A stretch of 23,650 nt of DNA from an uncultured bacterium. Its GTDB lineage: Bacteria; Muiribacteriota; Ozemobacteria; Ozemobacterales; Ozemobacteraceae. Shown in pieces: positions 2,792-22,499 of the stretch; positions within the stretch are counted from its first letter, which is position 1; the number at the start of each line of letters is the position of its first letter. Where the stretch lies: positions 64,001 through 87,650 of the forward strand of contig CAZOMG010000017.1 in the NCBI GenBank assembly GCA_964580875.1, given 5' to 3'. The translations under genes and the position numbers were made by a program. Under the pieces are notes generated by a model that searched no databases, was not told the DNA's origin, and saw only the letters and a list, made by a program, of their open reading frames with translations.

Positions 2792-3550
2792 TTAAATGCG
2801 GCCCATAAACCTGAGAATGCCTTCGAGAATGGTCCAGGGGTTCGGCGGGCAACCGGGAATATAAAGGTCGACGGGTATCAGGTCGCCGATTCCGTCGTTG
2901 ACTTCACTGTTGCCCCTGAATAACCCGCCCGAAATAGCGCAGGCGCCTGTGGCAATCACCACTGAGGGTGAAGGCAGGGCGGCATAAGTTTTTTGCAGCG
3001 CCAGTTTCATGTTCTGGGAAACTGGCCCGGTAACCAGCAGTCCATCGGCGTGCCGTGGCGAGGCGACGAACTGAATTCCGAACCTGGCCAGATCAAAAGT
3101 TGGGGTGCCAAGAACGTTGCAGTCCGCTTCGCAGGCGTTGCAACCACCGGCACTCACCTGGCGGAGCTTGAGGGAACGCCCGAAAATACGCTTGATTTCA
3201 GCGCCCATGGCTTCGGCGGTTTTAAATTCGCTGCTGCTGATCAGCAGATCGTTTTTGTGGCGTGCCGCCAGAGAAAATTCGCGGCTGAAACTGATCAGCT
3301 TGGCCGGGCAGGCTGGCTCACAGGCGCGACAGAAAATACAGCGCCCCATGTCGATTACCGGGCGGTGGTCTGAACCACAACTGACAGCACCGGTGGGGCA
3401 GACATTAATACAGGCTGTGCAGTCATTCTGGCATGTGCCGGTCGCAATCATGGGGCGGCCAGTATAGCGTGGCGCCATTTCCGGTATTTTATCGGGAAAC
3501 GGGAAGGTACGATACTGTTGGTGCAAGCGGGCTTTAAGAATCTGCAGCAT
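2792..3550 (-). CDS. Fusion protein: 2x[4Fe-4S] ferredoxin domain (HyfH/HycF/NuoI-like) + group-4 hydrogenase small subunit / NuoB-like domain (HyfI/HycG-like), 252 aa
   Basis: ATG at 3548-3550 with a GAGGT Shine-Dalgarno 6 nt upstream. The N-terminal half has two CxxCxxCxxxCP motifs (CQNDCTACINVCP, CIFCRACEPACP). The C-terminal half matches NuoB/HycG (ASPRHADGLLVTGPVSQNMKLALQKTY...VIATGACAISGG...DLYIPGCPP) and has CNAC (CxxC) in place of the complex-I CC motif, as in group-4 hydrogenase small subunits. All four proximal-cluster Cys ligands are present. Confidence 0.85.
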   Translation of the reverse strand: MLQILKARLHQQYRTFPFPDKIPEMAPRYTGRPMIATGTCQNDCTACINVCPTGAVSCGSDHRPVIDMGRCIFCRACEPACPAKLISFSREFSLAARHKNDLLISSSEFKTAEAMGAEIKRIFGRSLKLRQVSAGGCNACEADCNVLGTPTFDLARFGIQFVASPRHADGLLVTGPVSQNMKLALQKTYAALPSPSVVIATGACAISGGLFRGNSEVNDGIGDLIPVDLYIPGCPPNPWTILEGILRFMGRI

Positions 3551-3558
3551 ATTTTACC

Positions 3559-6617: not shown

Positions 6618-7288
6618 TCGTCTGCCTCCTCAACCACCGTAGCGGCAATTTCAAGGTCTGAAAGTTCGTTGAAGCGGTCGGCATCAAGGTGATCAAATTC
6701 ACGGTCAATATGGAAAAGCATGATGCCCATGAGGAAAATTCCGACAAAAACGTCGAGCAGAATGCCCAGTTCAACCATCGTTGAAAATTCGCTGCCAAGA
6801 CTCAACCCGGTGGTGAACACCCCGTTTTCGAGCACCAGAAAGCCGAGGGTCTGGGTAAGCGCCTTGCGACGGGTCATCAGAAGCAACAACCCTGAAAAAA
6901 CCAGAAAGAAGCCGCAGGTAAGTGCCACCGGAGATGCGATCGGGTCGGTTTCCAGCAGGGTGCTGACGATCCAGCCAGAAACGGCCAGAAGAAAGACACC
7001 GCACAGCATCGAGGCGCCGAAGCTGATAAAGGGTTCAATTTCGCGTTTGGTACCTGAGACAATCATGGCTTTATTGAGCAGCCATGGCAAAAGCCCGCTT
7101 TTCAAAACGATACTGGTAATCGAGAGGATGACCAGACCTGGGGTGAGATGCCCTGGCCCGACTGCGAACAACTGCAGAAGGCCAAGCAGCAGACCCTGAA
7201 AAGCCACCATGCGGATTGCGACACGCAGGCGACTCGAACCGAGCAGTAACAGGCATGATAATGTAAGTAGTGTAGCGATGCTGTTCAT
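6614..7288 (-). CDS. HyfE-like small membrane subunit (NuoK-related) of hydrogenase-4-type complexes
   Basis: Hydrophobic protein of about 224 aa. LGFLVLENGVFTTGLSL matches the conserved FGYxLMENG region of E. coli HyfE. The ORF track starts at a TTG at 7309; an ATG at 7286-7288 (MNSIATLL), 7 nt after the HyfC-like stop, is the more likely start. The stop overlaps the next start (ATGA). Confidence 0.65.
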   Translation of the reverse strand: MNSIATLLTLSCLLLLGSSRLRVAIRMVAFQGLLLGLLQLFAVGPGHLTPGLVILSITSIVLKSGLLPWLLNKAMIVSGTKREIEPFISFGASMLCGVFLLAVSGWIVSTLLETDPIASPVALTCGFFLVFSGLLLLMTRRKALTQTLGFLVLENGVFTTGLSLGSEFSTMVELGILLDVFVGIFLMGIMLFHIDREFDHLDADRFNELSDLEIAATVVEEADE

Positions 7289-7295
7289 GATATTT

Positions 7296-8216
7296 TCAGT
7301 TCCCTGCAATCTTGAGAATCAGAGCAATAATGGCGAGAGCGCCAGAACCGACAATGAATTTCGGAATATGAATCAGCCGCATTCTGGCGATCGTTGATTC
7401 AATCATGCCGATCAAAACGGCAACCAGAAACATGCCTGCTGCGAAAACCGGAAAATGCAGCAGGGTTGGCATGGCCGGAGTGCTGATCACCAGCCCGACC
7501 AGAAGACCCGAAAACAGCCAGAGTTTATAGGCCGCGGCGTATTCGATCATCGCCAGATCCTTGCTGCTGTAATCGAGAATCATCACCTCGTGAATCATCG
7601 TCAGTTCAAGATGGGTGTTGGGGTCATCGACCGGAATTCTCGCATTTTCGGTGAGCAGTACGATCATCCAGCTCACGGCGATCAGCAGCATAATGGCAGG
7701 GTTCTGTTGCCAGTGCCCGGGCGACAGTTCGGCAAAAATGCCCGAGATACTGAGACTGCCGGTTTCGTATATCAGCACGAGCAGCCCGCAGAATAGCGCC
7801 GGCTCAGCAAGGGCGCTATAGAGCACTTCACGGCTGGCGCCCATTCCCTCAAAGGCTGAACCGCGGTCAAGAGCCGCCGTTACCATAAAAAACCTCGCAA
7901 TGCCCAACAGGTAGGCCATAAAGATGATGTCACCCGAAAAAGTGCAGCAGGCCGGGTTGAAGAAGCCGGGCATCAGCAGGCCGGCACCGATGGTGGCGAA
8001 GAAGATCGCGAAGGGTGCGAGTCGGGTGAGCAGCGTTGCGGTGCGGCTATAGGTCGCTGATTTGTGCATCAGTTTAAACAGGTCAAAGTAGAGCTGGGTA
8101 ACCGGGGGGCCCTTTTTGCCGCCGAAGAAGGCTTTGACCTTGTTGATAATACCCGGAAACAAAGGGGCAAGAAACAGCGACAATATAAACCAGAGGATCG
8201 ATGTGTTATTGATCAT
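7296..8216 (-). CDS. HyfC/HycD/NuoH-like membrane subunit (respiratory-chain NADH dehydrogenase subunit 1 family), 306 aa
   Basis: ATG at 8214-8216 overlaps the upstream stop (ATGA). Eight-TM protein with the NuoH-like N-terminus (PLFPGIINKVKAFFGGKKGPP...) and the conserved TMIHEVMILDYS and ELSPGH-type motifs. Confidence 0.8.
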   Translation of the reverse strand: MINNTSILWFILSLFLAPLFPGIINKVKAFFGGKKGPPVTQLYFDLFKLMHKSATYSRTATLLTRLAPFAIFFATIGAGLLMPGFFNPACCTFSGDIIFMAYLLGIARFFMVTAALDRGSAFEGMGASREVLYSALAEPALFCGLLVLIYETGSLSISGIFAELSPGHWQQNPAIMLLIAVSWMIVLLTENARIPVDDPNTHLELTMIHEVMILDYSSKDLAMIEYAAAYKLWLFSGLLVGLVISTPAMPTLLHFPVFAAGMFLVAVLIGMIESTIARMRLIHIPKFIVGSGALAIIALILKIAGN

Positions 8217-10201
8217 ATTACAGCTACTTTCCAGAGCAGCAGGGCGAGAAGTGCAATGGCCAGATAGCCGACATAAAGGTGCAGATGGCCATGTTGCAGT
8301 GCTCTGAGTGGAACCACCAGCCGGTCAATCAGGGCGAAAAGCGGCAGAAAAAGGTAGCGCAACAGGGAGTCGGGCGCTTCAGTTCTAAAACTGGCGTGTT
8401 GCGGGAACAGGCCGCTGACCTTTTCGCCATGGCGAAAGGGTCTGACGATACTCGAAAAAACTTCAGAAACAGGCTGAGAGAAAGATGACGAAGTATATTG
8501 AATACGTGCATTGGGGGCGGCAAAACCGCAGTCCCAGGTGGGGCGATCCTGGACTTCGCCTTTGGAAAAGCGGCTTTTCTGGATGCGCCAGCCCAGCATG
8601 ACCAGTATGATCAATGCCAGTGAAAAAGCCGATATGGCACGCAAAGGCACGGCCGACAGCAGAAGATCATCGGCCGAAAACAGCATGCCGGCGGGGGCGC
8701 CGATCTCGGCAACAACGCGTGAAACCGGCAGCAGTAACCAGGGCGACAGCAAAGCCACTGAAAAAATAGCCAGAACGAGAATTGCCATGGGGAGCCTTAC
8801 CAGCGGTTTTATTTCCATGGGTGGTGGTTGTTTTTCTTCTCGCGGTGCGCCGAGAAAAACCAGCCCGAAGGTTCGTGAAAAACAGGCGGCGGCCAGGCCG
8901 CCGATGAGACCAAGACCGGCCAGCACAGTAGCAGAGAGCAGCAGGGCTGATGAGGTTCCGAGGCGGGTCGCTTTAAGCCCGGCCAGAAAAATGAGAAATT
9001 CACTGACAAAATTGTTGAAGGGCGGGAGACCGGCAATGGCGGCCGAACCTATTCCAAAGGCAAGGGCCGTGAACGGCATCGACTTCGCGAGCCCGCCCAT
9101 TGACTCCAGTTTTCTCGTTCCGGTGCCGAAATAGACGGCCCCCGAACCAAGAAACAGCAGGCCCTTGCAGATTGAATGATTGAGAATGTGCATCAAGGCA
9201 CCGGCTAAAGCTGCAAAGGCCATGGCCGGCAGCTTCCAGATGGTGGCAAGCACTGCACAACCGAGAGCCATGAGAATAATACCGGCGTTTTCCATGCTGC
9301 TGTAGGCGATGACTTTTTTAAGGTCATGCTGCACCAGCGCGGTGATCAGGGCAAAAACCCCGGTTAACAGGCCGCCGAACAGCAGGGTCCAGCCCCAGGA
9401 TGCCTGTTGAACCGGCAGAAACATCATGACCCTCACCAGCCCATAAAAGCCCATTTTGCTCATCGCACCCGACAGAACTGCCGAAACATGAGCGTCGGCA
9501 AAGGTATATGAATCAGGAAGCCATACATGTAACGGAATCAGCCCGACCTTAACGCCAAACCCGAACAGGGCGAGAAAAAAAATCGTCGAATAAGAACCGT
9601 AGGTGGCTGGAGCATTCAGAAACTGGTCGAATTCAAACGAGCCGGCCGAAGCGCTCAGCAGACCGAAGAGAATGAACAGGCCGGCTGTGCCGATGTGACT
9701 GGCCACCATAAAACGCCAACCGGCGTTGCGAACCGTGCCGATTTCGCTGCGGTGTGTAATGAGAAAAAAAGCTGCAACCGACATGATTTCCCATTCCATG
9801 AGAAAGAGGACAGCGTTGGCGGAAGCGAGCAACATCAACATCGAGGCAATCAGCAGGTTATAAAAAAACCAGTAACTGCCCAGGGCATGCTTTTCGTCAT
9901 AATGGGCGGTAGCGGCGGCATAAATTGCTGCGAGTGAGCCGAGCAGAATAACAGGCAGTGCGAAAAATGCCGATACCTGGTCAAGGCAAAGGGTAGCCGG
10001 GCCGAGGGGCAGGTTGAGCAGATAGCGACCGGTATCAGAAGCAAAAAACAAGCTTTGACAGACAGTCACCAGGGCCATTGCACAACCGGCAAGACACGAA
10101 AGGGCGCCGATCGCTGAAGAAAGGTTGCGCATGCGGCCAAAAAGTCCGGCGAAGCTTCCGCCGACTATAATAATCAAAATTGCGGTTAAAAAGAGCTGCA
10201 T
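8213..10201 (-). CDS. HyfB/HycC/NuoL-like antiporter-type membrane subunit, 662 aa; first gene of the operon
   Basis: ATG at 10199-10201 with an AGAGG Shine-Dalgarno about 9 nt upstream. Large polytopic protein with the HVWLPDSY and AGLPPFNNFVSEF motifs characteristic of the NuoL/MrpA/HyfB family. Preceded by a 420 bp intergenic region. Confidence 0.8.
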   Translation of the reverse strand: MQLFLTAILIIIVGGSFAGLFGRMRNLSSAIGALSCLAGCAMALVTVCQSLFFASDTGRYLLNLPLGPATLCLDQVSAFFALPVILLGSLAAIYAAATAHYDEKHALGSYWFFYNLLIASMLMLLASANAVLFLMEWEIMSVAAFFLITHRSEIGTVRNAGWRFMVASHIGTAGLFILFGLLSASAGSFEFDQFLNAPATYGSYSTIFFLALFGFGVKVGLIPLHVWLPDSYTFADAHVSAVLSGAMSKMGFYGLVRVMMFLPVQQASWGWTLLFGGLLTGVFALITALVQHDLKKVIAYSSMENAGIILMALGCAVLATIWKLPAMAFAALAGALMHILNHSICKGLLFLGSGAVYFGTGTRKLESMGGLAKSMPFTALAFGIGSAAIAGLPPFNNFVSEFLIFLAGLKATRLGTSSALLLSATVLAGLGLIGGLAAACFSRTFGLVFLGAPREEKQPPPMEIKPLVRLPMAILVLAIFSVALLSPWLLLPVSRVVAEIGAPAGMLFSADDLLLSAVPLRAISAFSLALIILVMLGWRIQKSRFSKGEVQDRPTWDCGFAAPNARIQYTSSSFSQPVSEVFSSIVRPFRHGEKVSGLFPQHASFRTEAPDSLLRYLFLPLFALIDRLVVPLRALQHGHLHLYVGYLAIALLALLLWKVAVI

Positions 10202-10622: not shown

Positions 10623-12020
10623 ATGATTATCCTTGTCAGAGCACAGCAGAGACTGCATGAAGAGTATAGTGTTACCTCTCGTTTGAAAGGTGATAGAGTA
10701 GTGATTAGAAATTGCCTGCCATTGCTTCGTATCCGAATTGCTTTATCTAAAGTCGCCTGCCTCGGGCTGCTTTTGTTGGTTTTGTGCTGGCCTGCAACCG
10801 CCGGCGCGGTTCTCAATGTCGTCAGTGAATTGTCGGGTCGTGACTGCTCCCCCTGGGAGCGCACCGAACTCATTGCAGACGACGACGCGCATTTTATTGC
10901 TGAGCCTTTTCATCTGAAGAGTCGTCATACTCACAGCATTGTTTTAAAAGCCTTCGGCACCGCCAAACCACATTCGCGCAATTTTCTGCTGCATTTCGCC
11001 CCCCGCTGGGATCGCCCCCGCCAGAAAGTGCCGGTTTTGCTGGTGCATGGCGCCGGTGATAACGCCTGCCGGGGTTTTTGCCACCCATATTCCTTCGACC
11101 TCCCCGAATCCGGAACCATTGACAAACCAGGTATGATGCAGCATCTGGTCCGTGAGGGTTTTTCGGTGTTTGGTATAACCTTTTCACATCCGCATGGCGA
11201 TAACTTTTTGCAGGCGCAGCAGGTTGCCAATGCTATCGCCCGCATTCGCGAGCTGACCGGTTCCGAAAAGGTCGATATTGTCTGTCACAGCAAAGGTGCC
11301 ATGTCGGTGCGAATTTATGCTTCCGATCTCGGCAGTGAATACCCTGAATATGCCTGGTTGACTCCCTTTCGCCACGACATCAGAAAAATCGTTTTTGTCG
11401 CATCGCCTCTCAAGGGCATTGATACTGCCTTCAGATATTACATGTATAATTTTACTGTCATGCAGCAAAAACTTGCCGCGCCGCTTGGCCCGCGTTCAAT
11501 GGCCTGGCAGGGCATGTATGTCGACAATGAAAGCCACAACCGGCTTTTTCCGGGGCAGTTTCAGATGTTGCATAACTGGGCCAACGATGGCATTGACCTG
11601 AGTGGTCAAAGTCTTACTGCAGATGCAAATATTACGTGTAAAGCGCTTTATAACGGTGGCGTCAGTGCGATGCTTGTTTCAGATGGCATTGATCGTGCTA
11701 TACAGGAATCCGGAAATGTGATAGACTCTCTCTGCAAAAAGGGAGTCGACCCCTCGATCACCTGTCATATTCTCGCCGGTACCGACCAGAAAATCGACAC
11801 TCTGAAGCTTTTCTGGCTTGAGCTTCCGGTCGGCGAATTTGCTGACAGCAGCGACGGGGTCTTGTTTCTCAAGAGTGCGACCTATAAGAAGGGTTTGACA
11901 GCCCGCGGTGCCAAGGTTGCCAGTGTCAAGACACTGAACATGCACCACGTTGGCGTGACCGTTCGGCCAGAAGCGCTCAATCACATTTCCGAGGTTTTAC
12001 GTGAAAGAAATTCTGATTAA
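10623..12020 (+). CDS. Secreted lipase/esterase-like alpha/beta hydrolase (family I-type lipase motifs), 465 aa by ORF track; probable true start at GTG about 10704
   Basis: A hydrophobic signal-peptide-like segment (ACLGLLLLVLCWPATAGA) follows an internal GTG at 10704, which has a strong AAAGGTGA Shine-Dalgarno 7 nt upstream. Oxyanion-type VLLVHGAGD and nucleophile-elbow VCHSKGAMS (x-H-S-x-G) motifs resemble Bacillus/Pseudomonas true-lipase boxes. The stop at 12018-12020 overlaps the next gene's start. Confidence 0.7.
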   Translation: MIILVRAQQRLHEEYSVTSRLKGDRVVIRNCLPLLRIRIALSKVACLGLLLLVLCWPATAGAVLNVVSELSGRDCSPWERTELIADDDAHFIAEPFHLKSRHTHSIVLKAFGTAKPHSRNFLLHFAPRWDRPRQKVPVLLVHGAGDNACRGFCHPYSFDLPESGTIDKPGMMQHLVREGFSVFGITFSHPHGDNFLQAQQVANAIARIRELTGSEKVDIVCHSKGAMSVRIYASDLGSEYPEYAWLTPFRHDIRKIVFVASPLKGIDTAFRYYMYNFTVMQQKLAAPLGPRSMAWQGMYVDNESHNRLFPGQFQMLHNWANDGIDLSGQSLTADANITCKALYNGGVSAMLVSDGIDRAIQESGNVIDSLCKKGVDPSITCHILAGTDQKIDTLKLFWLELPVGEFADSSDGVLFLKSATYKKGLTARGAKVASVKTLNMHHVGVTVRPEALNHISEVLRERNSD

Positions 12021-12576
12021 AAAATACGACAACCGTCGTTTGTATTGCGTTGAAGAAGCCAGATATGTTTCCCTCACCGAGATTCGCGATTTTTTGCAAC
12101 GCGGCGACAAGGTCAAGGTTGTCGAAAAAACCACCGGCAAAGATATCACCAAATACATTCTGATGCAGGTGATGCTCGAAGACCGCTATGAACTGGTGCC
12201 GACCTATTTTTACCAGATGATGCTGCAATCACAGCCCGAAGCACTCGATTATTTTTTCCAGCAGTTCTTCCCCTGGATGATGAGCATGTACAAAAACTAC
12301 CAGGAAGGCAAATTCGCGTTGCCGAGCATGCCCGGCATGCCAGCCATGCCCAGCACGCCGTTTCAGAATCCCTGGATGCAGATGCCCAACCCTTTTCAGG
12401 GCATTAACCCTTTTATGCAGCAGGCGGCGACCCCGCAGTCAACCGCGACTGCTGCCCCTCCGCCCCCGGCCGGCAAAAAAGCGGGCAAACCTGAGGCTCC
12501 CGCCTCCGGTGATGATAAAATGGCCGAGATTCTCAAGCGCCTGCGCGAACTCGAAGAAAAGCTGCACTCAGAGTGA
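12001..12576 (+). CDS. PhaR-family DNA-binding protein (PHA/PHB accumulation regulator N-terminal domain) with Met/Pro/Gln-rich low-complexity C-terminal tail, 191 aa
   Basis: GTG start at 12001 with a GAGG Shine-Dalgarno 7 nt upstream; the start lies 20 nt inside the end of the lipase gene. The N-terminus (ILIKKYDNRRLYCVEEARYVSLTEIRDFLQRGDKVKVVEKTTGKDITKYILMQVMLE) closely matches the conserved PhaR N-terminus (IKKYPNRRLYDT..S.Y.TL.DV....VKVVDAKSG.DLTRSILLQIILE). The C-terminus (MPGMPAMPSTPFQNPWMQMPNPFQGINPFMQQ...) is low-complexity and ends in an amphipathic helix. Confidence 0.75.
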   Translation: MKEILIKKYDNRRLYCVEEARYVSLTEIRDFLQRGDKVKVVEKTTGKDITKYILMQVMLEDRYELVPTYFYQMMLQSQPEALDYFFQQFFPWMMSMYKNYQEGKFALPSMPGMPAMPSTPFQNPWMQMPNPFQGINPFMQQAATPQSTATAAPPPPAGKKAGKPEAPASGDDKMAEILKRLRELEEKLHSE

Positions 12577-12772: not shown

Positions 12773-13510
12773 ATGAAATACAAACTGACCGGTGGGGTAC
12801 TGTTGGTGGTTTTGCTGCTTCTCGCTGTCTTTGCATCAGGCTCTGACGGCAAGCGGCGCAGCAGGGCATTGGCGATCATGCGCCAGGCCCGGGAGTTTCA
12901 TCTGGCCGGGCGACATGCAGATGCCCAGAATATGCTGCTCAAAGCCCGCTTCATCTGGAAAGAAATCCCCGAGCCAGACTGGGCGGCAGGGTCTCACCAG
13001 GCATCTTCAGCACAAGACTATGCAGTTTCTATGCAAAAACGCCACTCTGACCGGGTGGCCGCAATTCTTCTTGAGGCCCGGCAGGCTCACACGCGCTGGG
13101 ATACGGAACGCGCCCGGGCGCTCATCGTGCAGGCCCGCATTCTTGAACCCGGTTTGCCTGACCCTGAATGGCTTAAAAGCCCGCCCGGGCCTCGGGTTGC
13201 AGCCGAAAAGCCTCTTGACCGCCAGCAACTTCTGGCGCAGTTGCGTGCCAGGCCTGATGAGGCAAGCATGCTTGCCCTCGAAAAGCATCTAAGAGATCAC
13301 CCGGGTGACGAAGAAGCCCGCAAACTTCTCATGCAGACGGCGATCTCCGTCGGTGCTGTCAATGTGTTGCAGCGCCTTCCCGGTGCCGGTGGCCGGCAGA
13401 CTGATGGGCAATTGCTGCTCGTCTGCCTGAAATGGTTCGGGCTGCTGCTGATTCTGGCCACGCTGATCTGGCAGACCCACAGTCTCTGGGTTGATTTTAA
13501 GCAGCATTGA
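12773..13510 (+). CDS. Hypothetical protein with N-terminal signal peptide or anchor helix and C-terminal hydrophobic helix (bitopic prediction unverified), and an internal ~37-aa duplication, 245 aa
   Basis: ATG at 12773. N-terminal hydrophobic segment (VLLVVLLLLAVFASG) and C-terminal hydrophobic helix (WFGLLLILATLIWQTHSLWV). Two aligned repeat units: AIMRQAREFHLAGRHADAQNMLLKARFIWKEIPEPDW and AILLEARQAHTRWDTERARALIVQARILEPGLPDPEW. The charged helical central region may be TPR/Sel1-like. I recognise no family. Confidence 0.55.
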   Translation: MKYKLTGGVLLVVLLLLAVFASGSDGKRRSRALAIMRQAREFHLAGRHADAQNMLLKARFIWKEIPEPDWAAGSHQASSAQDYAVSMQKRHSDRVAAILLEARQAHTRWDTERARALIVQARILEPGLPDPEWLKSPPGPRVAAEKPLDRQQLLAQLRARPDEASMLALEKHLRDHPGDEEARKLLMQTAISVGAVNVLQRLPGAGGRQTDGQLLLVCLKWFGLLLILATLIWQTHSLWVDFKQH

Positions 13511-13635
13511 GCGGTATCGATTCATCGATCACGATGGCGACGGGGCACTGTCATTTCCCCTGAATTACGCCCGCCACCATGAAGTATTTGCATTTTTATA
13601 AAAATAAGACTGTCATAAGAACACGGAGATTCATC

Positions 13636-16600
13636 ATGTTGAACAATATTGGCACTGGTAAGCAAGGCTTTGTTTTGGTTTTGCTCGTGGCTTTGCTGGT
13701 TTTTTGCCAGGCCAATCCGGCGACGGCTTTGCAGCAATTACGATACCCCACTTTCGCCACCCCCTGGACAGAAACAGGCAAAGTTTTAGCTGCTGAGCCT
13801 GTTCTGTTTTCTAACACGACCCCTAATACTTCGGGGAACGGTCGCCGGGGTCTCTATGAGCGTCCCAATCAGTCAGGCACCAAGCAGGGCGATGGTTACA
13901 TGCAACTGGCATTTCCGGCCGTCGCTAAAAATGCTTCAACCACAGTATTGGTGCTTCTGTCTGTCAGAGAACCTACTCTTGCAAAACAGGCCAATAAGTG
14001 GTCGATGACCACAAAGGGTACCATCAGAAAATCCGATGAAACGGTAATTGCTGACCTTTTTAGCCGCACTTTGATTGAAGGTCAACAAACAGATACCTGG
14101 CAAGATCTGACCTGGAGCGGCACTCTGGCGCCTGCCGGTGTGAACGAACGCCTTTTCCGAATCTACTGGTTCATAGAGATCGTTGCCAACAACAAAGATC
14201 AGGTTGGAGCCGACTTCAGTGACGTTTACCTGCACATGAGCCCTTGCGGCCTGGCGGCCGCCGAAGAAGCGGTTGATGGTGGCGGAGTCACCCTCACCTG
14301 GAACCCAAGCGCACCGGGTACTGGCCAGCCGGGTTTTGATCCTGCCACCGCTCCATATCGTATTTATCGCCGCACCGACCCTCTGGCAGAATGGCAGTTG
14401 ATCGCCCAGTGGCCAACCGCGCCATGGGTGGCACCGGCGGCCACCACCTATACAGATACCACCTCACCTGCTTCAGAGACCGTATATTACTGCATAACCG
14501 ATTTCGACACCAATCTTTATGAATCGCCAAAGTCGCCCGAAGCTGTTTTTAAACCGGCCAGGCTGGTAATCGATGAGGTGACATCTGGTTATGAATCGGT
14601 CACCATCGGTCAGACGGCCGAAGTTTATGTTAAGCTGCACAACTCTGGCAACAGCCCCATCGATCTTTTTGCCCTCGAACTTGATTTTGAAGGCCCGGCT
14701 TCAGCGGCCTACTCTGTCGTGCCGCCGACCCTGTCGCCGGCTGCGCCTTTGACGCTTGCCGGGGGAGCGAGTGCCACTCTGACTTTTCAGGTGACCATAC
14801 TCGATAACCTCACTGCCCCGGGCTTCGAAACGATAAATGCTTCGGGGGCAGCACGTGCCACCGTCCGCAACCTTACCGTCACCGATACCCAGGCCGACGA
14901 CGACAAGAAAGAACGCTGGACGATCTGCTGGCCAGCTTCCCTTGAAATTACCGAAATAACTGTACCGCCCCGGGTTTTTCGTGGCCAGGTCGGAGCCACC
15001 ATAGACATTACTACCCTGAATAACGGTGGTGAGAACGCGGCGGGTGAATGGCTCAATACCGCGTTTAAGTTTGAGCCGGGCGGCGCCGTCGATTTCACCA
15101 ACCTCAGACTTGACCCGTTGAATACTTTGCCGGTCGAGATTAGCCAGAATAATACCATTACCAGGCGTTATCTGGTCGATGTTTCGGCGAATGCCCAGAT
15201 TGGGCCTTGCAATATTTTTGGCCGCATCTATTACCAGGATGTCAACCTGCGGGGCGACAGCGATTTCTGGACTGACTTCGATGATTCACCGGTCGCTTCC
15301 TGGTCGGTTCTGGCCGGTATCATGCGCACCTTCAGAACGTCATCGTATCTGACAGCCACCAGTACCTTCAATGCCGGCGCCAACAACGTGTTTGCCAAAG
15401 CTGAGAACCTGCAGCCTCTGACCAGTCATCGCTTCAGGTGGTTTGACCCTGATGACCATGAGGTTCTGACCAGCGGCATGGTGCAGACCAACGATCTGGG
15501 GGTCATGACCTATGAATTCCCGCTGACTGGTGCAGCCCATGGCCGCTGGCGGGTGGTGGCAACCAAGCCGCTGCTCGACACGCCACTTGCCGAAGCTTAT
15601 TTCTGGGTCCAGGACCCGGCTGCTATTTCAATCAGTCTGGGCATTCCGCCAATAATTGTCGAAAATCGCTACTTCAACGCTACCATGACGATGACCAACA
15701 TCGGTGAAGCGGCAGTTGCCCAGGCCTATGCCGGTTCGATTCTAAGAGTTAACAGTGTGGGCAACGCCAGTCTGGGTTCATTGCCGACTCCGACCTACCG
15801 TACCATCAGTGGCTTTGGAACTGGTATGTTCAGCTGGGGTTTTACTGCCACCACCATGGGTTCCTACTCATTGGAGGTAAAGGGCTACGGTTACGACGAC
15901 AACGACGGACGCTTTCTTGAAACGGCGAGTGTAACCAGCAATGTGGCCACGATCACCACGGCGCCAGTTCTCTCGGTAACCGGGGTGAGCGAGACCTATG
16001 ACAATGTATCACCAGGGCAGGCAAACCTGACCGTCAATATGGATATCGCCAACACTGGCGGCTCGCCGGTGTATGTTAATGCTGCGTCTCTGACCTTTGA
16101 TTCTGGCGCAGTTGCCCAGAGTTACACCCAGGTTTACGCTTCGCCGCCGGTATTTCCGTTCGTTCTCGATGGTAACTCAACCGCAAGAATCGTTTTTACG
16201 GTGGCGGTTGATGCGAGTTCACTGCCGGGTGCTGCGCTTATCAGGGGTTCTTTTACCGCATCCGAGGTTTACGATCTGGCGTGGGGCTACGGAGTGCCGC
16301 ACGGAGGTGGCACCGGGAACTGGACGGTTGCCGACGTTTCTTACGGTGAATGCAGTGCCAACCAGGATTTTCTGCCGCAACAGTATACGTTTAACCAGAA
16401 TCAGAGAATTTATGTCAGATTTCATAATGTGCCCGACAGTAAAAAAAATAATTATGCTGTTCTTTTTTTCGATGATGAAACCCTCGGAATCATCGGTGAT
16501 GAGCGGGAGTCGGTCTATGGTATTCCTGCCAATACTGAAAAGACGGTGACCACCAATGTTCAGCTGCCTGGCGACGCAGCAGTCAGAAAGTGGCGGGTTG

Positions 16601-19600
16601 AGTGCTGGGAAGCCGGTACTTCAGGGAAGCCAGTCGGCACAGAAGCTCTTGCAACGCAGTATTTTTGGGTCGAATACCCGGGGCAACTGGTTGCAACGCT
16701 GACGGTCAATGTTGAAGATGGCGTCGATCTTGGTGAGCCGATTACGGTAACCATGTCGCTGGCCAATGAGGTTGCCAGCAGTGCTGTCGTTTACCCGGCT
16801 TCGGCCACGACACCGATTAAATTCGCCGGCACCGGTGCGGTCAGCCCCTTGACTTACCCATCACCTGATACGGTCAGCATTCAGTATGGCTACCCGGCCA
16901 CCTTCACCTGGACATTCATGACCGATGCTTATTCGATCTTCGATACTTTTCAGTTGACATCGACGGCTACCGGCGTCGATCGTAACACGGCCAGCGCCCC
17001 TGAACTCGAGCGTCTTTATCCTTCAGTAACTGCATTTAGCAAGGCGTTTCGTATTTATGACCGCAAAATGACCATTTCCCCGATAACCCTCGATTTTGGC
17101 ACCATGATTCACGGTGAAACCAAGGTCATCGATGGCATAACCATCAATAACACCGGCAATGCCACAATGACCAATATTCAGTGGCAACTTCTCGACCTCG
17201 AAAGCCCCGAAGAAAACAAACTGCCTCTCAGTGCCTTTTTCCCGCTGCCTTCCCCGGAGGCTCCTTTTACCCTGAATGCTCCCGGCATTCAGACCGGTTC
17301 TTTTACTCTGACGCTTCCTTACAATCAGGCTTCAGGCACTTATGAGAAGCTTCTCTGGGTCTACGACGACGTCAACTATGATACGCAAAAAAATGCTACC
17401 GAGCCGGCGGCATCATTCACCGTCAGAGTCACTGCCAGCGAATGCAGCCATCTGGTTGTATCGCCGCAGATCATCGATCTGGGCGGCTGGCCCAAAAATA
17501 TCACGACCGCTTCGAAAACCCTTAGTCTTTTCAGCGGCGGCAACCTTGACCTGACGAATGTAAAATTCAAAGAAATAGCTTCCGACTCAAGTTTGACGAC
17601 GCTGAATGTTCTGCCGGCAACTCTTGGCAGTATGGTTGCCGGTTCGGTTGCGGTGGCCGAGGTGTCGGCGAGTATCGGGGCTGAAGGCAGCGGGCCTTAT
17701 ATTGCTACCTGGTCGGCCTATGATGATGGAAAATATGCCAGCGCCACTTTTCAGATTCGCTTTTCGGTGGGTGCCAAGGTTTTCGATGCTACTTCCGACC
17801 CGGTCAACCCGGTGCCGCAACCGGTTGCCATGGGCGCCGGCAATCCTGACAACAGTATCGAAAACGTCTCGTTCACGATTCGCAACACCTTGCCGGCCGG
17901 TGAACTGCCGATCCTGGCGCCCCGGTCTTACTGCACGGGTTTGCAACGCACCACGAGCAGCCCCGATCACACCCTGCCACCCGAAGACAACATCATTGTC
18001 GAACTGCCGGCCGGGCCGATCCCCTATGGTGAAACGCGCCTGGCAACCCTGTCGATATTCATTCCGCCCGGCACGCCTGAGGGCGACTACGAAGGTGTTA
18101 TAACCATCTATGACGACGAAGATGGCTTTGATTCAACCTCTGCTTTCGATATGCAGGTAACGCTTACCGTTAACCCGTTTTTTGCCATATCGGTGCTCGA
18201 TCAGACCGTAGATGTTGGGGGTATTTCGCCCGACGGCTTCAAACAGAAAACTTTCAAATGCATGAATATCGGCAGTTTGCATCTCGCGAGTATCTCATGG
18301 CTGATGAGTGCTTTCTCTCCGGTTATTCCGGTGGGCAACTATTCGATTGAGGTGCCTGCGAACGCCGCGATCGGCACTCTGTTTCTGGCGACCGTAACCA
18401 TGGATCTCAGCGGTCAGGCCTTTGGCACCTACCTGGCTTCTCCTTCATGGCTCTATAACGACCTGGATGGTGGCGGAAAAAGCGACCCGGCCGATGCGGC
18501 TGATAATTTTGGTGTCAAATGCCAGGTCGGCAATTTCGATCTGGATATCATCAATACGGCCCTTGTGGCGAGCGGGGTTCCGAATGCCCTGTCTGATGTG
18601 GTTGGCTTTGAAGTCTACAACACCGGCAATCTCGACCTTGAACTGCCAAAAATTCGGGCGATAGCGGATCTCACTCTCGATGCTTCGAACAAAATTTCTA
18701 CCACCGCCTGTGTTTTTACTACCATACCGATAATCAAGCCGCATACGGGCAATTACGGTAGCTGGGCAGTGCAGACGCCGCCTGCAACCATGGATGGTGA
18801 ATATGTTGGTAGTCTGAAAGTCTGGAATGACGATGATGGCGATGGCTACCCCGGTGATTTTGAGGCTTCTGATACGGTGGCCGTCACCATGAAGGTGTTG
18901 CCGAATACCTCGATGATCGCCACCCCTGACCCTTGTCTGTTGCCGGTCACCAGGCCCGGCGGAACTGCTACCGCCAAATTCCATGTGGTAAACACTGGCA
19001 ACCGGGTGGTGGCGCTGAGTTCTATTACTAAAGCCGCGCTTATCCGAACCTCCGGCGGCAGCATTCCGGTTGGTAATATCGGCTTTACCGCCATACCGGC
19101 CAATATTCCGGTTGCGCCGGCTGATGGCTATCTGGCCACGGTCACAGCAACGGTTACTGTGCCGCCCAGCCAGGTGCCGGGCACCTATTCCGGTATTCAG
19201 GTTATCAACTACGATGGCAAACAGCTGACCTTCGTTCTCGAGATAACGGTTGGTGAGAAGAAGATTGCAGTAACCAGCCCGGTTCTGTTGGGCACTTCGT
19301 ACCCGAAAGATTCGGTTTCGGCGAGTTTCAACGTTACCAATGAAAGTTCAACGATCGTTCTCGACAGCATCCGCTGGTTGAAGGCAGATTTTAATACCTC
19401 AGGCGCCGAAACTTTTTCTGCCGCTGCCCTGACTTTTTCAGATGAAGATGGTTTCGGGGTCGCGCCCAGTCAGACGAAAGCCATGACGGCTTTTGTGACG
19501 GTACCCGCCGGGAAGCCGGCGGGCAATTATATTGCCACCATTACCGCTTTCGACGACCAGATTGCCAACGGGGCCTATGATGATGGTGAAGCTTCGCGAA

Positions 19601-20532
19601 CCTTTCAGATTCATTTGACGGTAGGCAGTCGGGCGGTTCTGACCTTTGTCGATTCTTCATTGATCGATACCGGTGGTGCCCCCGCCGGCACCTTGAGCGC
19701 CCCGTCGGTGGTCATACCGATCATTAATGAAGGCAATATTGCCCTTAACAATCTTACTTTCTTGTCAACCAGCCTCAGTGGGCCAGGGCCGTCGATAGCC
19801 GGTGGCAATGTTGTGGTTTCTGGCCTGAGTAATCCTCTGGCAGTTGGTGTTACCGATGCTGATGTTTCGGTATGTATAAACGTTCCTGCCGGTCAGAATT
19901 CCGGTATTTATTCTGGTTTTCTCAGTATTTACGACAGCACTCTTCTGGCAACGCACCCTCTCGCTTCATGCACCCGCAAAATCACCATTTTTGTGCCACC
20001 CGACGCAAGCGGGCCAGATATCGCTTCTGGCGCCATCTACCAGGAAATTGCCACAAAGACTTTTTCGACCGGGGACCCCGAGACCTTTATCTTCTCTGCG
20101 TTTGTTGCGGCGACCGGTTCGGTGGGTATCGGTTTTATGGAAACGCTGCCTGACGAGAGCATCAGCAGTTACGAAGGTATCGTTTTTGATTTTGCAAATT
20201 TGACCCTTATCAAAACTAGTCCGGCGATCACCGCGTGTGATGCTGTGCCGATCGAAGTCCAGGATGGTTTGTCCTGGTACCGCATCTATATGACCTTCGA
20301 TTACAAGTTTGACGAAAATATGGCCAGCCACACTTACATTATTCTCAAAAATGCTACCCCTGATGAGGTTGTGGCCGTTGCTTCCTATTCAGCCTGGTTT
20401 GATGGCATTCAACTCGAAAAGACGGTTATCCCGGGCCAGACAAGGCCAACCGCCTTCCGGTCGCGCCCCAAGCTTATTTCGCCTTCAGATGCGCTGAGTG
20501 TTGATGGCAAGACCCATCATTACGAGTGGTAG
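13636..20532 (+). CDS. Giant secreted/cell-surface protein (~2298 aa) built from an FN3-like domain and at least 15 divergent tandem Ig-like beta-sandwich modules of the DUF1573/ASH/MSP (PapD-like) type
   Basis: The ORF track opens at 13579, but the ATG at 13636 has a GGAG Shine-Dalgarno 7 nt upstream and begins a classic signal peptide (MLNNIGTGKQGFVLVLLVALLVFCQANPATA). The protein is Thr/Ser/Val/Ala/Gly-rich and nearly Cys-free. The FN3-like segment lies at about nt 14270-14540 (GGVTLTWNP...YRIYRR...W..IAQW...YTDT...YYCITDFD). Repeated modules begin with xDFG/xDxGG...[IV]x[IV]xNxGNxxLxxIxW (for example LDFGTMIHGETKVIDGITINNTGNATMTNIQW) and end with Y.G.[IL].[IV][YW][DN]D...F.[IV].[LV]TV. 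The C-terminal ~140 aa (20100-20532) is a distinct non-repeat domain ending HHYEW. Confidence 0.85.
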   Translation: MLNNIGTGKQGFVLVLLVALLVFCQANPATALQQLRYPTFATPWTETGKVLAAEPVLFSNTTPNTSGNGRRGLYERPNQSGTKQGDGYMQLAFPAVAKNASTTVLVLLSVREPTLAKQANKWSMTTKGTIRKSDETVIADLFSRTLIEGQQTDTWQDLTWSGTLAPAGVNERLFRIYWFIEIVANNKDQVGADFSDVYLHMSPCGLAAAEEAVDGGGVTLTWNPSAPGTGQPGFDPATAPYRIYRRTDPLAEWQLIAQWPTAPWVAPAATTYTDTTSPASETVYYCITDFDTNLYESPKSPEAVFKPARLVIDEVTSGYESVTIGQTAEVYVKLHNSGNSPIDLFALELDFEGPASAAYSVVPPTLSPAAPLTLAGGASATLTFQVTILDNLTAPGFETINASGAARATVRNLTVTDTQADDDKKERWTICWPASLEITEITVPPRVFRGQVGATIDITTLNNGGENAAGEWLNTAFKFEPGGAVDFTNLRLDPLNTLPVEISQNNTITRRYLVDVSANAQIGPCNIFGRIYYQDVNLRGDSDFWTDFDDSPVASWSVLAGIMRTFRTSSYLTATSTFNAGANNVFAKAENLQPLTSHRFRWFDPDDHEVLTSGMVQTNDLGVMTYEFPLTGAAHGRWRVVATKPLLDTPLAEAYFWVQDPAAISISLGIPPIIVENRYFNATMTMTNIGEAAVAQAYAGSILRVNSVGNASLGSLPTPTYRTISGFGTGMFSWGFTATTMGSYSLEVKGYGYDDNDGRFLETASVTSNVATITTAPVLSVTGVSETYDNVSPGQANLTVNMDIANTGGSPVYVNAASLTFDSGAVAQSYTQVYASPPVFPFVLDGNSTARIVFTVAVDASSLPGAALIRGSFTASEVYDLAWGYGVPHGGGTGNWTVADVSYGECSANQDFLPQQYTFNQNQRIYVRFHNVPDSKKNNYAVLFFDDETLGIIGDERESVYGIPANTEKTVTTNVQLPGDAAVRKWRVECWEAGTSGKPVGTEALATQYFWVEYPGQLVATLTVNVEDGVDLGEPITVTMSLANEVASSAVVYPASATTPIKFAGTGAVSPLTYPSPDTVSIQYGYPATFTWTFMTDAYSIFDTFQLTSTATGVDRNTASAPELERLYPSVTAFSKAFRIYDRKMTISPITLDFGTMIHGETKVIDGITINNTGNATMTNIQWQLLDLESPEENKLPLSAFFPLPSPEAPFTLNAPGIQTGSFTLTLPYNQASGTYEKLLWVYDDVNYDTQKNATEPAASFTVRVTASECSHLVVSPQIIDLGGWPKNITTASKTLSLFSGGNLDLTNVKFKEIASDSSLTTLNVLPATLGSMVAGSVAVAEVSASIGAEGSGPYIATWSAYDDGKYASATFQIRFSVGAKVFDATSDPVNPVPQPVAMGAGNPDNSIENVSFTIRNTLPAGELPILAPRSYCTGLQRTTSSPDHTLPPEDNIIVELPAGPIPYGETRLATLSIFIPPGTPEGDYEGVITIYDDEDGFDSTSAFDMQVTLTVNPFFAISVLDQTVDVGGISPDGFKQKTFKCMNIGSLHLASISWLMSAFSPVIPVGNYSIEVPANAAIGTLFLATVTMDLSGQAFGTYLASPSWLYNDLDGGGKSDPADAADNFGVKCQVGNFDLDIINTALVASGVPNALSDVVGFEVYNTGNLDLELPKIRAIADLTLDASNKISTTACVFTTIPIIKPHTGNYGSWAVQTPPATMDGEYVGSLKVWNDDDGDGYPGDFEASDTVAVTMKVLPNTSMIATPDPCLLPVTRPGGTATAKFHVVNTGNRVVALSSITKAALIRTSGGSIPVGNIGFTAIPANIPVAPADGYLATVTATVTVPPSQVPGTYSGIQVINYDGKQLTFVLEITVGEKKIAVTSPVLLGTSYPKDSVSASFNVTNESSTIVLDSIRWLKADFNTSGAETFSAAALTFSDEDGFGVAPSQTKAMTAFVTVPAGKPAGNYIATITAFDDQIANGAYDDGEASRTFQIHLTVGSRAVLTFVDSSLIDTGGAPAGTLSAPSVVIPIINEGNIALNNLTFLSTSLSGPGPSIAGGNVVVSGLSNPLAVGVTDADVSVCINVPAGQNSGIYSGFLSIYDSTLLATHPLASCTRKITIFVPPDASGPDIASGAIYQEIATKTFSTGDPETFIFSAFVAATGSVGIGFMETLPDESISSYEGIVFDFANLTLIKTSPAITACDAVPIEVQDGLSWYRIYMTFDYKFDENMASHTYIILKNATPDEVVAVASYSAWFDGIQLEKTVIPGQTRPTAFRSRPKLISPSDALSVDGKTHHYEW
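17060..20090 (+). repeat. Tandem array of at least 8 well-delimited ~125-aa protein modules within the giant gene (coding-level divergent tandem repeats)
   Basis: Module starts are marked by LDFG (17089), IDLGG (about 17473), VDVGG (about 18210) and IDTGG (about 19660). Module ends are marked by VYDDVNYD, SAYDDGKY, TIYDDEDGFD, KVWNDDDGDGY, TAFDDQIANGAYDDGE, VINYDGKQ and SIYDS. The repeats are divergent at the DNA level, so they show as periodicity in the protein, not as exact nucleotide repeats. Confidence 0.6.
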
Positions 20533-20636: not shown

Positions 20637-21158
20637 ATGATTAAACAGGCAGCGATTTTTCAGCTTCTGATGATGCTTTTTATTCTTACCAGCTTTGTAC
20701 AAGGGCGATTGCATGCGAATCAGCTTGCCTATGTGTTTCCGCCAAATATTTCGTTGCAGATTATCGATCAGCAGGCTGAAGCCGGCGGGAAAATAAGACT
20801 GACAGCTGTTATTGAAAGTCGTCTTGGTAGCCTCGAAAACCTCGAACTGTTTTTTGAAAGTTCAAAAGACATGCAGGTGCTCAGTAATACCAGTATTCTC
20901 AAAAGCCTCGCTGTCGGGTCGGCCCGAAAAATCAAGATTCTGGCGGTTAAAACCGGCAAACCCGCTGACGAGATCGGTTCATGGTTAAAAATGGGGGTCA
21001 GATTCACCCCTGATTATCAGGCCATTAAGGTCGCTGTGAGCGATCAGGCCAAATACCCCGATGATTTTGAGCGCCAGAAACTGCTCGATGTAGTCGAAAA
21101 AAATTCGCAGGCTGCCGCCCGCTACCTTGAAGCGGTGCGCCACTTTATTACACAGTAA
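20637..21158 (+). CDS. Hypothetical small secreted protein, 173 aa
   Basis: ATG at 20637 with a GAGGAAAAGG Shine-Dalgarno upstream. N-terminal signal peptide (IFQLLMMLFILTSFVQG). No recognisable domain. Appears more AT-rich than its neighbours by eye. TAA stop at 21156-21158. Confidence 0.55.
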   Translation: MIKQAAIFQLLMMLFILTSFVQGRLHANQLAYVFPPNISLQIIDQQAEAGGKIRLTAVIESRLGSLENLELFFESSKDMQVLSNTSILKSLAVGSARKIKILAVKTGKPADEIGSWLKMGVRFTPDYQAIKVAVSDQAKYPDDFERQKLLDVVEKNSQAAARYLEAVRHFITQ

Positions 21159-21161
21159 CAA

Positions 21162-22499
21162 GTGACAATAATGCCACGAAAACTTGCGATTCTGTCTTTG
21201 TTGTTGTGTCTGCTTATCGTTTGGCCCGGGCTGGTTTCGGCCCTGACTTTTACGACTACCTATACGGTGATTACCGGTTATGGGCCGGTCGCCTCGTTTT
21301 CACACCAGTTGCCGGCCGGCGAAAGAGTCATCAGGGCCGGCGACAAGACCAACGCTTACCTGGTCAAGACAGTTTCTGTCAGAGATGAAGCGCATCTGCT
21401 TCAGCTGATGGGGGCTTCTGACGCCGCTGCCTTGACTGACATACAGAAGGGGCTGCTTGAGAGCTACCGCTTCGCGGCATCGCAGCGTTTTGACCCTCTC
21501 AAAAGCCGGGTTCCGGGTTCGTCGCCGGCGATTAACCTTGAACTGGTCGATATTAACGGTTATACCGACAGCAGTCGCTACAAAACGGTTGTCGATGATT
21601 TCTGGCCCCAGAATGCCAGAGTTTTTCGCTATGTCGGCACTGACCTTGAAATGAACTCAGATATCCGCATCAGCGGCACCGATTGTCTGGGTTTCGGCCC
21701 CGAAACGGCAAAGGCGATGCAGAGCACCTTCGCGCATGAATTCGGTCACGCCATGGATCTCACCCTGACCGAAAATAACGCCTACGGGCACGATGGCTCG
21801 CACTACATCAACGAAAAGATCGCCCCCAAGGCATCTTTTGCCGAAGGCTTTGCCAACTTTATCAAAATGCTCTTTTTTCCTGAAGAAGAACCCCGCTTCA
21901 GAGAAACGGTTAAAACCGTCAAAATCGAACGCCCTGAGGGCGGTTATGACGAGTTTCCGCTCACCGATACCCGCCTGGCCGGTGAGGGCTACCTTAACGT
22001 TGAAGCGATTAATACGCTGATTTTTACTCGCCTTGCAGCCGAGCTGCCTGATGGTCAGAAACTCGTGCTCGATTCTTTTCAGAAGCACAATACGGGCGAA
22101 AACCGCATGAGCAGCTTTTTAAAGAATTTTATTGCTGACCACCCGGCGCATGCCGAAACGGTTGCCAGAATTCTCAATCGCGAAACCGCCGGTCGGTTGA
22201 CTGACGAAGAAATGCGGCTGATACTCGGTAATGGCAGCGGGGTCGAAAGTTTTCTGGTCGCCCGGGCCAATACACCCGTTGTAGTCGCCGAACCAGAGAA
22301 GAAGGCCGAAGAACCCCAGCGCCGTTCAACAATCACCATCTACAAATGGAAAGACGCTTCAGGTGCCGTGCAGTTTACCAGCCAGCCACCGCCTGATGGT
22401 CGTGAATACACCGTCATTAACCGGGCGGCAGAGCCTGGGCGGGCCAGCCCGGTCGTCATCGAAAACCCACAGACCGACCCGTTTATTGTTGGTTATTGA
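21162..22499 (+). CDS. Secreted HExxH zinc metalloprotease-like protein with C-terminal DUF4124-like domain, 445 aa (ORF track starts at GTG 21162; ATG at 21171 equally plausible)
   Basis: Signal peptide MPRKLAILSLLLCLLIVWPGLVSA. Zincin-type motif TFAHEFGHAMD (HEFGH). The C-terminal segment TITIYKWKDASGAVQFTSQPPPDG matches the conserved core of DUF4124 (W.D..G..HFSD.PP). The stop overlaps the 3' end of the convergent EamA gene by 7 nt. Confidence 0.7.
   Translation: MTIMPRKLAILSLLLCLLIVWPGLVSALTFTTTYTVITGYGPVASFSHQLPAGERVIRAGDKTNAYLVKTVSVRDEAHLLQLMGASDAAALTDIQKGLLESYRFAASQRFDPLKSRVPGSSPAINLELVDINGYTDSSRYKTVVDDFWPQNARVFRYVGTDLEMNSDIRISGTDCLGFGPETAKAMQSTFAHEFGHAMDLTLTENNAYGHDGSHYINEKIAPKASFAEGFANFIKMLFFPEEEPRFRETVKTVKIERPEGGYDEFPLTDTRLAGEGYLNVEAINTLIFTRLAAELPDGQKLVLDSFQKHNTGENRMSSFLKNFIADHPAHAETVARILNRETAGRLTDEEMRLILGNGSGVESFLVARANTPVVVAEPEKKAEEPQRRSTITIYKWKDASGAVQFTSQPPPDGREYTVINRAAEPGRASPVVIENPQTDPFIVGY

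Follow-up and report, generated by a model that had tools for sequence, protein, structure and literature searches.

Lineage-specific giant proteins built of beta-sandwiches are already a well-known kind, and the described systems closest to the protein considered here include the giant immunoglobulin (Ig)-like surface proteins, with their CARDB, DUF11, NEW3, choice-of-anchor-D and HYDIN-like domains (the database proteins P0006 and P0007 are examples). Parts of it also recall the ciliary ASH/MSP (PapD-like) arrays of HYDIN, CFAP65 and CFAP74, the bacterial alpha-2-macroglobulins of the ECAM / YfhM type, and CBM_4_9 (PF02018), a family of carbohydrate-binding modules (CBMs). The protein is encoded in a stretch of 23,650 nucleotides from an uncultured bacterium of the family Ozemobacteraceae (contig CAZOMG010000017.1, positions 64,001 to 87,650; this whole stretch is referred to below as the window), where its gene occupies 13636–20532 on the forward (+) strand. 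The analysis established the gene, the domain layout and internal homologies of its 2298-residue product, the distribution of the family, and the linkage of the gene to a neighbour that encodes a predicted membrane protein, hereafter the partner. Our preferred reading, held with moderate confidence, is that of a head-rod-tail protein that may serve as a lectin-tipped adhesin, or else as a fibre of the envelope or matrix, with the partner as its tether or chaperone.

With the giant Ig-like surface proteins the product has in common a signal peptide, a length of thousands of residues, a series of sandwiches of 100–130 residues with a V.N.G ... G.Y pattern, and weak Pfam matches to the same clan. 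Unlike them, it has no module that reaches a Pfam cut-off, and its four module classes stand in a fixed order between a Riflebacteria-specific head and tail, with no known anchor and with a linked membrane partner gene. The motif h.h.P..hDFG...N.GN is shared with the ciliary arrays, which, unlike the giant protein, are cytoplasmic and eukaryotic, and the likeness to them comes from low-confidence models. Like the bacterial alpha-2-macroglobulins, it is a large Sec-exported beta-sandwich chain, with weak MG2 similarity in two modules (M3 and M6), but those two are its only MG2-like modules, and it lacks the thioester motif and domain as well as a conserved lipobox.

The giant gene and the layout of its product

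A single open reading frame spans 13579–20532 (+), and the ATG at 13636 within it is preceded, at the right spacing, by a GGAG ribosome-binding site; from there to the stop codon, which is included in 13636–20532, the frame encodes 2298 residues, whose numbering is used here alongside the positions of the window. The product matches P0001, listed as a "hypothetical protein" from a metagenome-assembled genome (MAG) of Candidatus Rifleibacterium sp., at 100% identity, and it aligns from first to last residue with full-length homologs at identities of 85% (P0002), 43% (P0003), 42% (P0004) and 28% (P0005, 3406 residues). The gene is real, and reading frame, ribosome-binding site and homologs bear out the coordinates, the length of about 2300 residues and the 29% share of the window that an earlier note, made from the sequence alone, had assigned to it. 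The same note had described the product as cysteine-free, which it is not, having 16 cysteines (0.7%); its composition is acidic (isoelectric point, pI, 4.45) and rich in Thr, Ala, Ser, Gly and Val. A scan for promoters and terminators around the gene gave nothing informative.

Only residues 4–33 of the protein form a strongly hydrophobic segment, with one further borderline segment inside the C-terminal domain (CTD), and a hydrophobicity scan found no C-terminal hydrophobic helix. All five aligned homologs have A-x-A after the hydrophobic core and next to it an unvarying LQQL.PTF, which looks like a signal-peptidase I site. The hydrophobic N-terminus and this conserved site uphold the signal peptide proposed earlier (residues 1–30; 13636–13725, +), with predicted cleavage between ATA and LQQL. 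A lipoprotein anchored via Cys24 was considered and rejected as unlikely: P0003 and P0005 lack Cys24, Phe occupies position -1, and no lipobox is conserved. The evidence supports a Sec-exported, all-beta protein.

A self-comparison had been suggested as the means of counting the modules of the protein. Self-BLAST proved blind to them, finding no internal repeats, and profile comparison of sub-alignments was needed: an alignment of five sequences was cut at motif-defined boundaries, the pieces were compared all-against-all by hhalign, and fifteen modules were resolved. They are preceded by two other domains. The N-terminal head (residues 31–204; 13726–14247, +) is an orphan that carries the family-conserved motifs AL[QE]QLxNPxF..W ... 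YhDNh.hNhSPxGL; it had no match in Pfam or PDB sequence searches, hhalign related it neither to the CTD nor to CBM_4_9 (0–0.5%), and the resemblance of its motifs suggests that it may be jelly-roll-like. Then comes a probable FN3-like domain (residues 205–304; 14248–14547, +), predicted by the earlier note and supported by the match of the family profile of this region (A7) to the Clostridium Fn3-like structure 3mpc (E 1.8e-5). Pfam fn3 (PF00041) was matched weakly by four of 15 relatives, at E values of at least 0.005, and the window protein itself had no match.

The rod begins with modules M1–M7 (residues 305–1140; 14548–17055, +), beta-sandwiches of three classes in the order A A B C A B C. 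Class A (M1, M2 and M5) is CARDB/DUF7507-like, with mutual hhalign probabilities of 93–97%; class B (M3 and M6; 83%) is MG2-like; and class C (M4 and M7; 97%) includes a module, M4, that BLAST aligned at 33–41% identity with repeats of two unrelated giant proteins rich in CARDB/NEW3 domains, P0006 and P0007. The remainder of the rod is an array of eight tandem beta-sandwiches of ~115–135 residues each, the type-D modules M8–M15 (residues 1141–2122; 17056–20001, +). They are mutually homologous, at hhalign probabilities of 92–99% for most pairs and of 42–76% for M10 against M8, M9 and M11, and distinct by the same comparison from the three classes that end at residue 1140. Their consensus (alignment A5) reads h.h.P..hDhG ... 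N.GN ... G.Y.G.h.h.DD ... EAS.TF.h.h.V. The tandem array of the earlier note is therefore found in the eight type-D modules, which have the consensus it described, but does not extend to M1–M7, which are sandwiches of three other types. A perfect GC hairpin of 8 bp (19504–19523, +; CCCGCCGG GAAG CCGGCGGG), picked up by the terminator scan within the coding region of M14, encodes PAGKPAG and is most likely incidental.

Nothing in the whole protein reached a Pfam gathering cut-off. Below it lay MG2 at residues 585–657 (21.1 bits against a cut-off of 32.8), DUF7507/CARDB at 309–391, NEW3 at 1938–1971 and DUF1573 (PF07610), which covered residues 1775–1799 only (14.3 against 26.1 bits; E 0.042). 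An identity as an alpha-2-macroglobulin was rejected on the sub-threshold MG2 score and on the thioester motif CxEQ, which occurs nowhere in the protein. When 32 type-D modules were compared with Pfam, DUF1573 matched one (E 0.14) and PF22544 (HYDIN_VesB_CFA65-like_Ig) three, with a best E of 0.0047 and none above cut-off; the Pfam neighbours of type D, all sub-threshold, were NEW3, DUF7507, HYDIN_VesB_CFA65-like_Ig, DUF4402 and, once, DUF1573. Against the PDB, the type-D profile touched GH123, a sialidase and FAP65, in each case in their Ig-like domains. NCBIfam returned no family for the protein at E <= 1, and Fn3 was the one informative result of the PDB sequence searches, which used the whole protein, two profiles of the CTD and one of the head.

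AlphaFold2 models, made separately for each half of the protein from the shallow alignment of five sequences, were all-beta and of low confidence (mean predicted local distance difference test scores, pLDDT, of 58 and 50), with the lowest values in the head and the CTD, whose folds are not interpretable from the models. Foldseek searches of the PDB with the C-terminal half ranked ciliary central-apparatus arrays of ASH domains first (E 1e-28 to 1e-22, from a model with a mean pLDDT of 58 and at TM-scores of ~0.15) and titin, cadherins and alpha-2-macroglobulins lower, and the N-terminal half gave a mixture of ASH arrays and alpha-2-macroglobulins. The models support a rod made of strings of Ig-like sandwiches, with type D ASH-like at the level of the fold only. 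Of the label "DUF1573/ASH-like", which the earlier note had given to the modules, the second part is retained in this restricted sense, resting as it does on low-confidence models, but DUF1573 fell short of its cut-off.

Turns of the Ca2+-binding type had also been proposed at the ends of the modules. In many type-D modules of the family, an acidic loop of the form D-x-[DN]-x-[DN]-G-x-x-D-x-x-E lies between the last two strands, and 46 full-length proteins contain 86 such 12-residue loops against 0.8 expected from shuffles, an enrichment that is partly circular, as the pattern was taken from alignment A5. The window protein, on the other hand, has none of the 12-residue loops and a single DxDxDG (residue 1732; shuffle fraction 0.13), a number that does not exceed what shuffled sequences yield. 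The Ca2+ idea is a reasonable one for the family and a weak one for the window protein.

The C-terminal domain and the distribution of the family

The CTD (residues 2123–2298) proved unrelated to the rest of the giant protein when all pieces were compared by hhalign. It is made up of a core (residues 2123–2268; 20002–20439, +), supported by a CTD profile and by hhalign against clostridial CBM_4_9, and a C-terminal tail (residues 2269–2298; 20440–20529, +), GQTRPTAF...LISP...VDGKTHHYEW, supported by its conservation in 67 family CTDs. Across those 67 the tail is nearly invariant, with the consensus Q.RPT.Y....KL.SP.....L.G...YYEW-COOH, and it is not hydrophobic. The family motifs of the core are YQEIAT.TF, LSAWV, WYR.Y..F, L.N and VWFDGIQLEK. 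As the earlier note had stated, the protein has no recognisable anchoring signal: a motif search found no LPXTG, the NCBIfam models for LPXTG, PEP-CTERM and type IX secretion system (T9SS) tails had no match, and neither did Pfam Por_Secre_tail or SLH.

Direct searches did not place the core in a known family. CBM_4_9 had no match at E <= 10 in sets of five and of 33 CTD sequences, PDB sequence searches with CTD profiles did not recognise the domain, and its weak Pfam matches were to other jelly rolls (BetaGal_ABD2 and a 3-keto-disaccharide hydrolase). A scan of one genome per species, however, returned four weak CTD matches in Clostridia (L070–L073), in RHS/YD-repeat toxins, where the matching segments are bona fide CBM_4_9 (PF02018, E 2e-14). 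These toxins (e.g., that encoded at L071 3247–9723) carry CBM_4_9 domains in tandem, and the last strand of these domains, AWFDGIQLEK, agrees with the Riflebacteria CTD motif letter for letter. When the profile of 67 CTDs was compared with three of the clostridial segments, hhalign gave a probability of 97.1% (E 7e-11) over 112 columns, which include YQ..a...l..g.Y.LSAyV, W.R...F and WFDGIQLEK. The segments had been retrieved via the motif WFDG[VI][QK][LF]E, and in a control with the WFDGIQLEK strand removed from both sides, a co-linear alignment of 30 columns remained, at 54% (E 1.3e-4). The core is probably, though not certainly, a distant jelly roll of the CBM_4_9 type. Unlike CBM_4_9 itself, it would lack the first ~35 residues of the module and has the added tail of 30 residues ending in YYEW, which by sequence is family-specific and has no counterpart. 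A circular permutation, with the tail replacing the missing first strands of CBM_4_9, was tried and dropped (hhalign 0.2%). The earlier note had rightly singled out the CTD as a distinct, jelly-roll-type domain ending in HHYEW, but its suggestion of a novel sorting or attachment domain is not supported as worded; a match to a known CBM, which it had named as evidence to the contrary, was found in part, through the profile relation to CBM_4_9 (97%, or 54% without the motif).

The distribution of the CTD was examined with a profile of the last 181 residues, searched against 1.84 billion representatives at 50% identity. It matched 79 of them, 54 below 1e-30, and apart from a few spurious or marginal matches, it did so at the extreme C-terminus of proteins of 2000–3800 residues or of short fragments; a eukaryotic repeat protein among the matches is a false positive. 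The carriers are paralogous giants, a rod-less form and small secreted CTD-only proteins. Rod length in the paralogs varies from 0 to more than 25 modules. The rod-less form (P0082, a metagenome protein of 483 residues) has the signal peptide, head, FN3-like domain and CTD, and no beta-sandwich array. CTD-only proteins, of ~205–250 residues, were found at five loci and in several database clusters, and have the CTD behind a signal peptide, in some cases with a Lys/Pro-rich linker between the two; those at the five loci (L043 3285–3950, L054 4639–5304, L063 86–739, L067 95–754 and L017 9770–10519), of ~215–250 residues and with such a linker, end in YYEW. KPPKPPKPPKP, from Candidatus Ozemobacter sibiricus, is one such linker, and in L043 and L054 the CTD-only gene is directly 3' of a giant gene. 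Since the CTD occurs on paralogs, on the rod-less form and alone, the head and tail are the constant parts of the family and the rod is a variable spacer, a pattern that fits an autonomous functional (binding) module and not a sorting tag shared by unrelated cargo.

In the scan of one genome per species there were 64 family loci in 31 assemblies, with one to three per assembly; the MAG that contains the window gene also encodes a paralog of 3294 residues. Where source names are present they are Rifleibacterium, Ozemobacter or Riflebacteria, and the giant family is found almost only in Riflebacteria, an uncultured phylum of diderm Terrabacteria with OmpM-type tethers. MAGs named otherwise have one to three copies: an "Erysipelotrichia bacterium" (SABV01000026; L008) has a family member of 2284 residues together with the partner, and "Candidatus Methylomirabilis sp." (DYKG01) carries family genes at L030, L043 and L056. 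These are probably mislabelled or contaminated bins. In the literature on Rifleibacterium, Riflebacteria and Ozemobacter, we found no paper that describes the giant family.

The partner gene and the wider neighbourhood

The partner gene (12773–13510, +; 245 residues) is co-directional with the giant gene and ends ~125 nucleotides before its start codon. The product has a signal peptide, helical repeats of the form A..ARxxxPxLPxPxWL and, at the C-terminus, a hydrophobic helix with basic residues after it, the hydrophobic segments being 1–27 and 210–235, and it is read as a type-I inner-membrane protein with a predicted periplasmic helical domain. The earlier note had counted it as one of two small secreted proteins near the giant gene, which overlooks the C-terminal membrane helix. 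The partner is directly 5' of the giant gene in L001, L002 and L003, and again in the second pair in L005 (Candidatus Rifleibacterium amylolyticum). A hidden Markov model of the partner found ~30 copies in the fetched loci, and of the complete giant genes with enough flanking sequence, 17 of 33 had the partner within 1.5 kb upstream, often at a spacing of less than 100 bp or overlapping, and sometimes in divergent orientation. The partner family comprises 37 clusters, of which the few with a named source are from Riflebacteria; none of the 37 had an informative Pfam match, and one carries PF08590. In Riflebacteria bacterium GWC2_50_8 (L021 634–15778) the arrangement is repeated in tandem: partner, giant of 2305 residues, partner, giant of 2293 residues.

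Downstream of the giant gene, at 20637–22499 (+), are genes for secreted proteins of 173 and 445 residues, and their linkage is loose: both are near the giant gene in L001, in the same order, and in L002, where they have moved upstream, and both are absent from the L003 contig. The larger protein (21162–22499, +) has a HEFGH motif of the zinc-protease type, a C-terminal DUF4124 (E 6e-8) and a weak DUF6055 match, and had no relative in PDB or NCBIfam searches; in L002 the gene for its homolog is followed by one for a C39-like peptidase. In L003, just 3' of the gene for the homolog of 3406 residues, there is a gene (16818–17369 of that locus) for a protein of 183 residues with a pseudopilin- or GspK-like N-terminus (RRGALLMMLFVMLIVGGIVAL), which could hint at a link to export of the type II or type IV pilus type; there is no such gene beside the window gene.

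On the other side of the partner, at 10623–12576 (+), genes for a secreted, lipase-like alpha/beta-hydrolase and a PhaR-type regulator overlap by 20 nucleotides. The hydrolase is weakly similar to the extracellular polyhydroxyalkanoate (PHA) depolymerase PhaZ7 (NCBIfam E 3.4e-7, far below cut-off), and the first ~30–37 residues of its called frame are unmatched by homologs, so that the true start is probably later. The regulator matches PHB_acc_N (E 5.6e-19). Synteny of this pair with the giant gene was seen only in L001 and L002, which are related loci, and the two genes look like a separate PHA-related unit. Further away, on the reverse strand (2792–10201), is a six-gene operon for a membrane-bound module related to complex I and Mrp and resembling group-4 [NiFe]-hydrogenase, with two Proton_antipo_M proteins, NuoH-like and NuoK-like proteins, a fused 30-kDa/49-kDa large subunit, and a 20-kDa small subunit that has a 4Fe-4S dicluster domain. 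This hydrogenase-like operon also adjoins the giant gene in L001.

Possible roles of the giant protein

If the protein is the head-rod-tail fibre that we prefer, its fifteen rod modules in line would extend for roughly 60–70 nm, and the CBM_4_9-like domain at the far end would bind a glycan or an envelope component in a lectin-like manner. Such a fibre would act as an adhesin or as a spacer in the envelope or matrix, with the partner serving at the cytoplasmic membrane as the holder, chaperone or tether of the giant protein. Paralogs of differing rod length and the stand-alone CTDs would then provide the same binding activity at different reach. Several findings weigh against this reading. About half of the 33 evaluable loci lack the partner, and its presence is not significantly related to head type (12 of 18 loci for one type against 5 of 15 for the other; Fisher p = 0.08). 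The link to CBM_4_9 is inflated by the motif used for retrieval, falling to 54% once that is removed, and is not found by direct Pfam scans of the CTD. The Ca2+-type loops are degenerate in the window protein, and the AlphaFold2 models are poor (mean pLDDT 58 and 50), poorest for the head and CTD, so that what is said of these two folds comes from sequence profiles only. There is also no outer-membrane export system beside the gene, and in a diderm host such as the Riflebacteria, a Sec substrate could then just as well remain periplasmic. The most reasonable inference is nevertheless a role at the surface, in a matrix or in adhesion.

The last of these points leads to an alternative that we consider fairly unlikely, in which the protein is a structural or protective component of the periplasm, tethered to the inner membrane via the partner and acting in the manner of an alpha-2-macroglobulin or as a spacer, without exposure at the surface. 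Sec dependence in a diderm host, with no adjacent outer-membrane secretion genes, is in its favor, as are the two MG2-like modules, the alpha-2-macroglobulins among the fold-search matches, and the prediction that the partner faces the periplasm from the inner membrane. These have to be set against the missing CxEQ motif, the MG2 score of 21.1 against the required 32.8 bits, the lack of a conserved lipobox and the size of the molecule, for an extended rod of ~17 domains would be expected to exceed a typical periplasm. A lattice is a different matter. Surface-layer proteins are typically acidic, Cys-poor and rich in Thr, Ala, Ser and Gly, and a large, all-beta protein of just that composition, with a pI of 4.45, might be the subunit of the cell's outermost lattice, in the form of an S-layer or sheath. 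We regard this as very unlikely, given that Pfam and NCBIfam detected neither SLH nor any other known S-layer anchoring domain, and that one to three divergent paralogs per genome, of very different lengths and with a rod-less form among them, fit fibres better than they fit a lattice subunit.

The near-invariance of the last ~30 residues in 67 family members invites yet another interpretation, namely that the CTD, together with its YYEW tail, is a new signal for sorting or anchoring, read by a dedicated machinery that would be the partner or an outer-membrane component. An aromatic-x-aromatic C-terminus such as this one resembles the ligands of C-terminus-binding proteins, the giant protein is without a known sorting signal by NCBIfam and motif search, and a membrane partner is genetically linked to it. 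However, a general sorting signal would be expected on diverse cargo, and this CTD is confined to the paralogs of a single family and to CTD-only proteins, which would be reduced to a signal peptide plus a "sorting signal"; in addition, its core resembles a binding jelly roll, and half of the loci are missing the partner. We judge this interpretation unlikely. A more specific idea combines the giants, the CTD-only proteins and the type-I partner into a Riflebacteria-specific envelope system, in which fibres of set length would be fixed to the envelope non-covalently, with the YYEW-COOH tail acting as a new kind of docking peptide. We think this distinctly improbable, but if it were true, it would represent a previously unknown means of attaching surface or periplasm-spanning fibres in diderm Terrabacteria.

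While the family, its tail motif and the partner are undescribed, the kind of protein they belong with is a familiar one, and no new mechanism has been demonstrated. The head, the type-D module, the tail and the partner are all without a model in Pfam and NCBIfam, and defining the family would improve the annotation of Riflebacteria MAGs. At one to three copies per genome and ~7–10 kb each, these genes are a large and conserved investment, which makes their products candidates for the principal fibres, of adhesion or of the envelope, in the Riflebacteria.

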